5,177 nt of DNA from a virus (IMGVR_UViG_2645727991_000006), one strand, 5' to 3'. Shown: positions 1 to 2,324, counted from the first letter of the stretch. The notes: a model not told the origin generated them from the sequence alone. Numbers and translations are program-made.

Positions 1-240
1 CAGCGAGCGCCTGCCGGGCTGAATGCCAACCTGAAAACGTACAGCGTGACGCTTTCTGTCCCCCGTGAGGAGGCCACGGTACTGGAGTCGTTTCTGGAAG
101 AGCACGGGGGCTGGAAATCCTTTCTGTGGACGCCGCCTTATGAGTGGCGGCAGATAAAGGTGACCTGCGCAAAATGGTCGTCGCGGGTCAGTATGCTGCG
201 TGTTGAGTTCAGCGCAGAGTTTGAACAGGTGGTGAACTGA
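1..240 (+). CDS. M: Tail tip protein M (gpM), C-terminal part only; the 5' end lies upstream of the window
   Basis: Frame 1 is open from base 1 (QRAPAGLNANLKTYSVTLSVPREEATVLESFLEEHGGWKSFLWTPPYEWRQIKVTCAKWSSRVSMLRVEFSAEFEQVVN) and ends at TGA 238-240. This matches my recollection of the C-terminus of the 109-aa lambda gpM. The track ORF 46..240 is the same frame begun at an internal GTG. The stop overlaps the L start (ATGA). Confidence 0.88.
   Translation, partial: QRAPAGLNANLKTYSVTLSVPREEATVLESFLEEHGGWKSFLWTPPYEWRQIKVTCAKWSSRVSMLRVEFSAEFEQVVN
227..232 (+). promoter_or_regulatory. Shine-Dalgarno (AGGTGG) for L
   Basis: AGGTGG sits 7 nt upstream of ATG 240, inside the 3' end of M. Confidence 0.6.
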
Positions 241-938
241 TGCAGGATATCCGGCAGGAAACACTGAATGAATGCACCCGTGCGGAGCAGTCGGCCAGCG
301 TGGTGCTCTGGGAAATCGACCTGACAGAGGTCGGTGGAGAACGTTATTTTTTCTGTAATGAGCAGAACGAAAAAGGTGAGCCGGTCACCTGGCAGGGGCG
401 ACAGTATCAGCCGTATCCCATTCAGGGGAGCGGTTTTGAACTGAATGGCAAAGGCACCAGTACGCGCCCCACGCTGACGGTTTCTAACCTGTACGGTATG
501 GTCACCGGGATGGCGGAAGATCTGCAGAGTCTGGTCGGCGGAACGGTGGTCCGGCGTAAGGTTTACGCCCGTTTTCTGGATGCGGTGAACTTCGTCAACG
601 GAAACAGTGACGCCGATCCGGAGCAGGAGGTGATCAGCCGCTGGCGCATCGAGCAGTGCAGCGAACTGAGCGCGGTGAGTGCCTCCTTTGTACTGTCCAC
701 GCCGACGGAAACGGATGGCGCTGTTTTTCCGGGACGTATCATGCTGGCCAACACCTGCACCTGGACCTATCGCGGTGACGAGTGCGGTTATAGCGGTCCG
801 GCTGTCGCGGATGAATATGACCAGCCGACGTCCGATATAACGAAGGATAAATGCAGCAAATGCCTGAGCGGCTGTAAGTTCCGCAATAACGTCGGCAACT
901 TTGGCGGTTTCCTTTCCATTAACAAACTTTCGCAGTAA
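240..938 (+). CDS. L: Tail tip protein L (gpL), 232 aa
   Basis: Track ORF 240..938, ATG 240-242 to TAA 936-938. AGGTGG Shine-Dalgarno at 227-232, 7 nt before the ATG. Length and sequence (MQDIRQETLNECTRAEQSAS...FGGFLSINKLSQ) match lambda gpL as I recall it. Cys-rich C-terminal region. Confidence 0.93.
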   Translation: MQDIRQETLNECTRAEQSASVVLWEIDLTEVGGERYFFCNEQNEKGEPVTWQGRQYQPYPIQGSGFELNGKGTSTRPTLTVSNLYGMVTGMAEDLQSLVGGTVVRRKVYARFLDAVNFVNGNSDADPEQEVISRWRIEQCSELSAVSASFVLSTPTETDGAVFPGRIMLANTCTWTYRGDECGYSGPAVADEYDQPTSDITKDKCSKCLSGCKFRNNVGNFGGFLSINKLSQ

Positions 939-942
939 TCCC

Positions 943-1686
943 ATGACAGAGACAGAATCAGCGATTCTGGCGCACGCCCGGCGATGTGCGCCAGCGGAGT
1001 CGTGCGGCTTCGTGGTGAGAACGCCGGAGGGGGAAAGCTATTTTCCCTGCGTGAATATTTCCGGTGAGCCGGAGGATTATTTCCGGATGGCTCCGGAGGA
1101 CTGGCTGCAGGCAGAAATGCAGGGTGAGATTGTGGCGCTGGTCCACAGCCACCCCAGTGGTCTGCCCTGGCTGAGTGAGGCTGACCGGCGGCTGCAGGTG
1201 CAGAGTGATTTGCCGTGGTGGCTGGTCTGCCGGGGGGCGATTCACAAGTTCCGCTGTGTGCCGCATCTTACCGGGCGGCGCTTTGAGCACGGGGTGACGG
1301 ACTGTTACACGCTGTTCCGGGACGCTTACCATCTGGCGGGGATTGAGATGCCGGATTTTCATCGTGAGGATGACTGGTGGCGTCACGGTCAGAATCTCTA
1401 TCTGGATAATCTGGAGGCCACAGGGCTGTATCAGGTGCCGTTGTCAGCGGCGCAGCCGGGCGATGTGCTGCTGTGCTGTTTTGGTTCATCGGTGCCGAAT
1501 CATGCCGCCATTTACTGTGGTGACGGCGAGCTGTTGCACCATATTCCTGAACAACTGAGCAAACGAGAGAGGTATACCGACAAATGGCAGCGACGCACAC
1601 ACTCCCTCTGGCGTCACCGGGCATGGCACGCATCTGCCTTTACGGGGATTTACAACGATTTGGCCGCCGCATCGACCTTCGTGTGA
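943..1686 (+). CDS. K: Tail assembly protein K (gpK), JAMM/MPN+ plus NlpC/P60-like domains; drawn from the first in-frame ATG (248 aa); canonical annotation starts at ATG 1087 (199 aa)
   Basis: Frame 1 is open from 901 (TTG) to TGA 1684-1686. First ATG at 943, 4 nt after the L stop; second ATG at 1087, preceded by GGAGGA at 1071-1076 (10 nt spacing). HSHPSGLPWLSEAD (1144-1185) fits the JAMM pattern HxHx7Sx2D; the candidate upstream Glu (AESCGFVV, GAG 997-999) lies before the canonical start. NlpC/P60-like Cys in GVTDCYTLF (TGT 1303-1305), with downstream His residues (NHAAIY, LLHH). The 3' end matches the canonical 199-aa K exactly. Confidence 0.85.
   Translation: MTETESAILAHARRCAPAESCGFVVRTPEGESYFPCVNISGEPEDYFRMAPEDWLQAEMQGEIVALVHSHPSGLPWLSEADRRLQVQSDLPWWLVCRGAIHKFRCVPHLTGRRFEHGVTDCYTLFRDAYHLAGIEMPDFHREDDWWRHGQNLYLDNLEATGLYQVPLSAAQPGDVLLCCFGSSVPNHAAIYCGDGELLHHIPEQLSKRERYTDKWQRRTHSLWRHRAWHASAFTGIYNDLAAASTFV
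1071..1076 (+). promoter_or_regulatory. Shine-Dalgarno-like GGAGGA upstream of the internal (canonical) K start ATG 1087
   Basis: GGAGGA sits 10 nt upstream of ATG 1087. It lies inside the open K frame, so it may drive an internal or alternative initiation, or be coincidental. Confidence 0.4.
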
Positions 1687-2324
1687 AAACGGGGGCTGAA
1701 GCCATCCGCGCACTGGCCACACAGCTCCCGGCGTTTCGTCAGAAACTGAGCGACGGCTGGTATCAGGTACGGATTGCCGGGCGGGACGTCAGCACGTCCG
1801 GGTTAACGGCGCAGTTACATGAGACTCTGCCTGATGGCGCTGTGATTCATATTGTTCCCAGAGTCGCCGGGGCCAAGTCAGGTGGCGTATTCCAGATTGT
1901 CCTGGGAGCAGCCGCCATTGCCGGATCATTCTTTACTGCCGGAGCCACCCTTGCAGCGTGGGGGGCAGCCATTGGGGCCGGTGGTATGACCGGCATCCTG
2001 TTTTCTCTCGGTGCCAGTATGGTGCTCGGTGGTGTGGCCCAGATGCTGGCACCGAAAGCCAGAACTCCCCGTACACAGACAACGGATAACGGCAAACAAA
2101 ACACCTATTTCTCCTCACTGGATAACATGGTTGCCCAGGGCAATGTTCTGCCCGTTCTGTACGGTGAAATGCGCGTGGGATCACGTGTGGTTTCTCAGGA
2201 GATCAGCACGGCAGACGAAGGGGACGGTGGTCAGGTTGTGGTGATTTGGTCGCTGATGCAAAATGTTTTATGTGAAACCGCCTGCGGGCGGTTTTGTCAT
2301 TTATGGAGCGTGAGGAATGGGTAA
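1584..2324 (+). CDS. I: Tail tip assembly protein I (gpI); reads as 246 aa here, 23 codons longer than the canonical 223 aa (see findings)
   Basis: Track ORF 1584..2324. ATG at 1584 is exactly 497 nt after ATG 1087, as in lambda. The first 221 residues match my recollection of lambda gpI ([74 protein letters not shown]...GGQVVVI). Overlaps the K 3' end by 103 nt in a different frame. The 3' end diverges after the T-run at 2245-2247. Confidence 0.85.
2275..2300 (+). other. GC-rich hairpin (8-bp stem AAACCGCC/GGCGGTTT, 4-nt loop TGCG) followed by a U-rich tract (TTTTGTCATTT); terminator-like or mRNA-structure element at the I-J junction
   Basis: Read directly: 2275-2282 AAACCGCC, loop 2283-2286 TGCG, 2287-2294 GGCGGTTT (perfect complement), then TGTCATTT. 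It lies about 20 nt before the J ribosome-binding site. In canonical lambda this would be intergenic (I-J); here it falls inside the extended I reading frame. Confidence 0.35.
2305..2308 (+). promoter_or_regulatory. Shine-Dalgarno (GGAG) for J
   Basis: GGAG sits 8 nt upstream of ATG 2317. Confidence 0.55.

Follow-up and report, generated by a model that had tools for sequence, protein, structure and literature searches.

The closest described relative of the protein considered here is gpK, the tail tip assembly protein of phage lambda. [quoted passage not shown] A 2025 conference summary reports cleavage of this domain off gpI by gpK during stepwise tail-tip assembly (PMC12908700). Furthermore, gpK is required for tail assembly (PMC12617516) and was undetected in virions by mass spectrometry (PMC10721106), and virion maps resolve gpI only from residue 101 (PMC11101478).

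Lambda gpK exists in the databases in two lengths. The corrected protein (PV340536; DE3 WP_000194780.1, 247 aa) belongs to the TAPK family of Iyer, Burroughs & Aravind (2006), and its gene has 744 nt. The protein of the lambda reference genome (NP_040598.1, P03729-type; NC_001416 14276..14875) has 199 aa. It is this shorter form that a structural review quotes when it gives the length of K as ‘out of 199’ (PMC7291167), and NP_040598.1 is the accession of the corresponding clone in an expression library (PMC12236752).

Outside the tail cluster, each domain has stand-alone counterparts. Pyrococcus furiosus JAMM1 (PfJAMM1; PDB 5LD9 and 5LDA, the enzyme alone and with ubiquitin-like SAMP2), Desulfitobacterium DSY2949 (2KKS) and the haloarchaeal desampylase (NF041370) have in common with gpK the JAB fold and the E...HSH-x7-S-x2-D motif, and such stand-alone JAMM enzymes act on ubiquitin-like beta-grasp proteins ending in Gly-Gly. 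In gpK, unlike these enzymes, JAB is fused to NlpC/P60, and the presumed target is not a conjugated modifier but the N-terminal domain of a structural tail protein. The papain-like fold and conserved Cys-His-His residues of the second domain recur in the NlpC/P60 (C40) proteins MepS/Spr of E. coli and the Acd autolysins of C. difficile; unlike these, gpK revealed no signal peptide or cell-wall-binding module on informal inspection.

Gene K examined here agrees with corrected lambda K in its position between L and I, its 744 nt, a start 4-5 nt past the L stop and the JAB plus NlpC/P60 content, and the two proteins are approximately 96% identical. They differ as alleles do (for example E3/Q3, R26/S26, D45/A45 and S72/G72, window/lambda), and K follows the L stop after 4 nt here but after 5 nt in lambda. 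The 199-aa reference protein corresponds, in the same reading frame, to the C-terminal 199 residues; in the reference DNA the K frame is broken by a missing G, whereas here it is continuous.

Gene K and its neighbourhood

The window, by which we mean the whole 5177-nt stretch of DNA analysed, is the tail-tip region of a lambda-like siphovirus or prophage. The 3′ end of M is followed by L, K and I and then by J, of which the first half is included, and this M-L-K-I-J order of the siphovirus tail cluster is found both among the window ORFs and in the annotations of relatives. The window is distinct from lambda: no phage record is more than 96.4% identical to it over its full length, and the best E. 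coli prophage is 99.1% identical to it over positions 850-1700. The features relevant to gene K are collected in Table 1.

Table 1. Features of the L-K-I region, in window coordinates
Feature	Coordinates	Strand	Basis
Gene L (minor tail / tail tip protein L, 232 aa)	240..938	+	ORF list; relatives all annotated minor tail protein L
Gene K, complete, 247 codons + TGA (744 nt); tail tip assembly protein K, predicted JAB/JAMM + NlpC/P60 two-domain peptidase	943..1686	+	Translation, Pfam; same CDS in relatives and by PGAP
48 N-terminal K codons omitted by the lambda-style 199-aa annotation	943..1086	+	Helix 3-15, strands 21-27 and 30-36 of the JAB fold (AF2 model)
Glu19 codon, context P-A-E-S-C-G; putative catalytic/water-activating Glu of the E-x(n)-H-S-H-x7-S-x2-D JAMM motif	997..999	+	Conservation; aligned with 2KKS
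HSHPSGLPWLSEAD, metal-binding half of the JAMM motif (H68, S69, H70, S78, D81)	1144..1185	+	Translation; conserved in 95-102 of 105 distant relatives
Internal SD-like GGAGGA (1071-1076) and in-frame ATG 1087-1089 (Met49)	1071..1089	+	Start carried over from the annotated lambda reference
NlpC/P60 (C40) papain-like peptidase domain, Pfam residues 111-224	1273..1614	+	Pfam, conservation, Foldseek
NlpC/P60 conserved residues Cys121, His187, His199	1303-1305, 1501-1503, 1537-1539	+	
Gene I start and N-terminal ubiquitin-like domain ending Gly100-Gly101, overlapping the end of K	1584..1886	+	ORF; fold per PMC1779556

An earlier note on this DNA had pointed out that the K frame is open upstream of ATG 1087, and the frame is indeed free of stops from 943 to the TGA at 1684-1686. 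Its other placements are likewise correct: ATG 943 lies 4 nt past the L stop TAA at 936-938 (the spacer reads TCCC), the interval to ATG 1087 amounts to exactly 48 codons, the internal ATG is in frame and preceded by GGAGGA, and both halves of the JAMM motif, including the Glu of AESCGFVV upstream of ATG 1087, are at the positions given. Its product of 248 aa counts the stop codon and should read 247. ATG 1087, with its Shine-Dalgarno (SD)-like element, counts as the ‘canonical’ start only because the annotation of the lambda reference has been transferred to DNA that is not lambda. The long protein begins MTETESAILAHAR... and has a predicted mass of 28.3 kDa, and the 199-aa form begins MAPEDW... 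and would have a mass of approximately 23.0 kDa.

The open frame by itself carries little weight. Shuffled 144-nt sequences are stop-free in 14% of cases, and in this G+C-rich window approximately 35% of stretches of 48 codons contain no stop. Because openness over 48 codons is so common by chance, the case for the extension rests on homology. No SD sequence was recognized at ATG 943, where the predicted pairing with the anti-SD is +0.7 kcal/mol. Since this codon both lacks an SD and lies 4 nt past the L stop, it is probably reached by ribosomes that terminate on L, and initiation there is most likely translationally coupled to L termination. The K frame is also open farther upstream, back to a TTG at 901 inside L (ORF 901..1686, 261 aa). 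The extent of this opening varies among relatives, and the aligned start is always an ATG directly 3′ of the L stop; the opening to 901 looks incidental.

Several observations concern gene I. Its annotated start varies by record across window positions 1584-1686 (L001, L002, L004 and L149): a lambda-style ATG gives an overlap with K of approximately 100 nt, another start lies approximately 37 nt inside K, and a third shares 4 nt with the K stop. The databases thus seem not to have settled where I truly begins, nor, in consequence, which residue is the first of the ubiquitin-like domain. Near the other end of the gene (window 2241-2324), the window has an extra T (GTGATTTGG) compared with lambda, an E. 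coli prophage and two viral contigs (GTGATTGG). This base converts the normal C-terminus (...VIGR-stop) into a 23-codon extension that crosses the hairpin between I and J and continues past the J start at 2317, and it could be a sequencing error or a true frameshift. Between I and J, at 2275-2295, a G+C-rich inverted repeat is followed by a T run (AAACCGCCTGCGGGCGGTTTT); this element is terminator-like by eye and is conserved in lambda and relatives.

Domain content and predicted structure of the two forms

The 247-aa form matches Pfam Prok-JAB (PF14464) with 51.7 bits, and the match spans profile positions 4-103 of 114. With the 199-aa form the match is limited to profile positions 63-103, and its 21.6 bits fall below the gathering threshold of 25 bits. 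The second domain is unaffected by the choice of start: NLPC_P60 (PF00877; MEROPS C40) is matched with 49.2 bits over all 105 profile positions (1-105), against a threshold of 23 bits, and the match is retained in the 199-aa form. Moreover, the 48-aa N-terminal peptide is recognized as JAB sequence by itself, with a Prok-JAB match at E = 2.9e-5, and PHROG families cover it with E values down to 1e-30. The NCBIfam model for desampylase-type JAB proteins (NF041370) is matched by the long form only. This score is 29.6 against a cutoff of 130, so that gpK is no member of that equivalog.

Consistent with these matches, the complete JAMM motif (E19, H68, S69, H70, S78 and D81) is present in the 247-aa product, and the 199-aa form is without the Glu. 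PDB entry 2KKS, a stand-alone JAB protein, aligns from residue 7 and places E19 on its PNEACG glutamate. We found no solved structure of gpK itself, and a sequence search of solved structures returned only 2KKS. From sequence, we assign a predicted JAB peptidase domain to approximately residues 1-105 (E19, H68, H70, S78 and D81) and a predicted NlpC/P60 peptidase domain to the C-terminal portion, in which C121, H187 and H199, by their positions, probably form the catalytic triad.

AlphaFold2 (AF2) models of the 247-aa and 199-aa forms were built from the same 18-sequence alignment. The long form was modelled with a mean pLDDT of 80.6, and its residues 1-48 reached 85-93 and formed a helix (3-15) and two strands (21-27 and 30-36). 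The model of the 199-aa form has a confident NlpC/P60 domain, preceded by 71 residues of JAB remnant with pLDDT values of 30-43 in which the strands are lost. The best Foldseek matches of the JAB portion in the PDB were PfJAMM1, followed by 2KKS, Rpn11 and CSN5; for the stand-alone JAMM enzymes the target-normalized TM-score was 0.59-0.67 with a probability of 1.00, at 21-25% identity. The second domain matched MepS, Acd33800 and other NlpC/P60 structures. The long form is therefore predicted to fold as a complete JAB domain and the short form is not, and the comparison of models that the earlier note had proposed yields a complete JAB plus NlpC/P60 protein only from the long form.

Conservation of the first 48 codons

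Among the best 120 relatives, the full-length ones have 242-249 aa and carry both PF14464 and PF00877. In 18 relatives with 67-96% identity, residues I8, L9, A12, C15, P17, E19, S20, C21, G22, Y33, P35, N38 and F47 are invariant. A library-wide HMMER search yielded 2753 relatives, and 105 full-length representatives with less than 62% identity were analysed. The first 48 residues of K align throughout this set (median 48 of 48; at least 35 aligned in 102 of the 105). E19 is conserved in 100 of these representatives, C21 in 96, G22 in 103, N38 in 101 and F47 in 98. These rates are comparable to those of the metal-ligand set downstream (H68 102, H70 100, S78 95 and D81 102), and the NlpC/P60 residues are retained to a similar degree (C121 100, H187 102 and H199 101). 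The presumed catalytic Glu and its surrounding motif thus persist at 35-50% identity.

The DNA of the related loci gives the same result. By tblastn, the N-terminus lies in a single frame in the fetched loci whose best match reaches it, including all 80 viral contigs. In every such locus except the lambda reference (L003) and one reference-like record (L010), it is in frame and has a start codon beside the L stop. In most of the loci that allowed both positions to be assigned, the distance from the L stop to the start aligned with M1 is -1 to +11 nt, and in Burkholderiales relatives (42-45% identity) the K start and L stop form an ATGA overlap.

Selection on the extension was assessed by nucleotide diversity at each codon position over 93 distinct close alleles. 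This measure was used in place of Nei-Gojobori dN/dS between the window and each related locus, in which synonymous sites are saturated below approximately 85% identity and close pairs carry too few changes in 47 codons. For codons 2-48, diversity at positions 1, 2 and 3 is 0.020, 0.014 and 0.080, compared with 0.028, 0.014 and 0.077 for codons 50-105 and 0.016, 0.019 and 0.075 for codons 106-247. Diversity at third positions of codons 2-48 is four- to sixfold that at positions 1 and 2 and is indistinguishable from downstream K. This bias indicates that purifying selection in the K frame acts on the extension just as it does on the remainder of the gene. The alignment of homologues upstream of Met49 reveals conservation at the protein level through the 48 codons in both close and distant relatives. 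The loss of conservation, or the stops, that the earlier note named as grounds for rejecting the longer K were not seen in homologues of 943-1086, apart from the lambda reference and the reference-like record.

The lambda reference and the origin of the 199-aa annotation

The reference sequence NC_001416 is one base short just upstream of its K start, where it reads GGAGGC-TATTTCC and the window reads GGAGGCGTATTTCC. The homologue of the G missing after 14266 is window nt 1077, the third base of codon 45. In the reference, the frame opened by an ATG at 14133, five nt past the L stop, reads MTQTESAILAHARRCAPAESCGFVVSTPEGERYFPCVNISGEPE and is thereafter out of step with K. The K frame itself is blocked by a TGA located six codons upstream of ATG 14276. 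Without the G, the first 45 codons of K are placed in another frame. The first ATG past the break (14276, equivalent to window 1087) would then have been taken as the K start, and this call would have been copied to other records. When the G is restored, lambda K has 744 nt.

The short version of the site is rare. Over a 130-nt stretch, exact matches to the reference are found only in J02459, NC_001416, OR474059 and OR974322, and 28 other records match over this stretch at 99.2% with one extra base. All 20 independently assembled sequences that are otherwise identical to lambda (0-2 mismatches over up to 2016 nt of L-K-I) have the G after 14266, and among the compared sequences that cover the site, only NC_001416 and OR974322 are without it. 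Sequences with the G include lambda from an MG1655 lysogen, KT232076, lambda imm434, DE3, Lambda_AGU and contigs of contaminating lambda DNA. A programmed frameshift that would join the two frames of the lambda reference was considered and rejected, because independent lambda sequences contain the extra base. A supplier of commercial lambda DNA reportedly lists a G insertion at 14266; this was not used as evidence.

A side observation concerns the contaminant contigs. Lambda DNA was present in low-coverage contigs of unrelated bacterial assemblies (L092-L104, L113, L114, L116 and L117), including those of Neobacillus, Shewanella canadensis (48.5 kb), Pseudomonas spp., Bradyrhizobium, Paenibacillus, Enterococcus and Kitasatospora. 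These contigs are identical to NC_001416 over L-K-I except for the G after 14266, and presumably represent laboratory contamination or spike-in.

In the literature searched, we found no paper that says outright that the K start of lambda is misplaced. The one hit was the variant table of the MutaMouse genome paper, which records ‘14266 C>CG’ among the constitutional differences between the lambda-gt10 transgene and a J02459-based reference (PMC6760142). Table 5 of the same paper contains a second indel relative to the lambda reference (137 AG>A, near cos/nu1), and the reference may therefore hold another one-base discrepancy at that position.

The simplest reading of these data is that the 1982 lambda sequence (J02459/NC_001416) contains a one-base error. 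The 199-aa ‘canonical’ K is an annotation artefact. The earlier note was right that the 199-aa annotation truncates the JAMM domain; its cause, a single missing G in the lambda reference, had been overlooked.

Choice between the start sites

We conclude that K is very probably one 744-nt gene (943-1686) that encodes an intact 247-aa JAB/JAMM plus NlpC/P60 protein, and that the 199-aa product results from annotation. The use of ATG 943 is deduced from comparison of sequences, and the claim that the product from ATG 943 is an intact two-domain protein is favoured by Pfam, homologues and AF2 alike. The converse would be that only the 199-aa protein is made from ATG 1087, with the upstream 144 nt being untranslated or a decaying remnant of JAB. 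This reading has behind it the J02459/NC_001416 annotation and its copies in DE3, lambda imm434 and OR974322, the presence of an SD at ATG 1087 and its absence at ATG 943, and the frequency with which shuffled sequences remain open. We regard it as extremely improbable in view of the purifying selection on codons 2-48, the conservation of the Glu motif in distant relatives and the in-frame N-terminus with a nearby start in every other fetched locus covering it. The annotation on which it leans is explained by a single missing base, and the deubiquitinase-like activity reported for gpK would need the whole JAB domain. A related proposal is that in 1982 the sequence was read correctly and the G had truly been lost from the stock by mutation, in which case some viable lambda stocks would make only short K. 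OR974322 and OR474059 also are without the G, but both may be derived from the reference, and the exact copy of the RefSeq annotation in OR974322 would fit reference-guided assembly. The G is present in the 20 independent lambda-identical sequences and in the lambda-gt10 transgene, and the site (GGAGGCG) is a G/C-rich run; such runs readily cause band compression on older sequencing gels. A genuine mutation is thus very unlikely.

A second protein could also be made alongside the 247-aa form, with ribosomes entering at GGAGGA 1071-1076 to produce from ATG 1087 a 199-aa protein that would in effect be an NlpC/P60 peptidase attached to a JAB remnant unable to fold. In some prophages the protein consists of NlpC/P60 without JAB (PMC1779556). 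The SD-like element has a predicted anti-SD pairing of -9.5 kcal/mol, a value reached by only approximately 7% of 20-nt windows in the sequence, and the combination of SD and ATG is present in 89 of 95 close alleles. However, conservation of the peptide E-P-E-(D/A/E) already imposes the GGAGG, and in a few close alleles the internal ATG has become CTG or ATA or the SD has been lost (GAA). The 10-nt spacer is longer than the usual optimum, which also counts against internal initiation. None of 21 distant loci has both elements, and among the 105 distant representatives the residue aligned with Met49 is Met in 13 and Ile in 66. In addition, the short form is modelled with approximately 70 low-confidence N-terminal residues. 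We therefore consider the production of two proteins very unlikely, and about as improbable is a version confined to the close lambda group, in which a full enzyme and an NlpC/P60-only isoform have separate roles. Such an arrangement of two products from one gene would recall other late genes of lambda that occur as nested pairs. On the sequences compared, the internal start is not a conserved feature of the K family. The view that the start could not be resolved from sequence was too cautious, since comparison shows the long form to be conserved and Met49 and its SD to be limited to close relatives; it holds for an additional, minor short isoform.

A likely role in processing of gpI

With the single 247-aa product as the preferred reading, gene K has the characteristics of the TAPK family: a two-domain JAB plus NlpC/P60 protein of approximately 245 aa whose start abuts the L stop. 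The window also encodes the proposed substrate in gene I, which has Gly100-Gly101 at the end of the ubiquitin-like domain. By analogy with the published work on gpI cleavage, the intact JAB domain would most likely remove the N-terminal ubiquitin-like domain of the neighbouring gpI during tail-tip assembly, and the K and I proteins of the window may be related as enzyme and substrate in the same manner. A functional JAB domain needs E19 and, for this reason, needs the long form.

Current annotation and implications

The long K is correct but already known: it is standard in current annotations, and its domain architecture was published in 2003-2006. A 744-nt K is already called in relatives by PGAP, Pharokka-style and CPT annotations, and PGAP makes the same call in prophages of E. 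coli, lambda DE3 among them (WP_000194780.1). Nevertheless, the inherited 600-nt call persists in several records whose DNA is intact, and one record contains a compromise K of 636 nt. The useful remainder of our analysis is the explanation of this discrepancy by one missing G in the lambda reference.

NC_001416/J02459 is the most used phage reference genome, and one base is still missing from it, with the result that its annotation gives an essential tail-assembly enzyme in truncated form. A construct designed from the short annotation would be without the catalytic Glu and approximately one-third of the JAB fold and, according to the models, is predicted not to fold in that region. Negative or odd results obtained with such a ‘gpK’ could therefore be artefacts, and correction of the reference would ease study of the processing of the gpI ubiquitin-like domain by gpK. 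In biological terms, the 247-aa K is a complete and unexceptional member of an established protein family.
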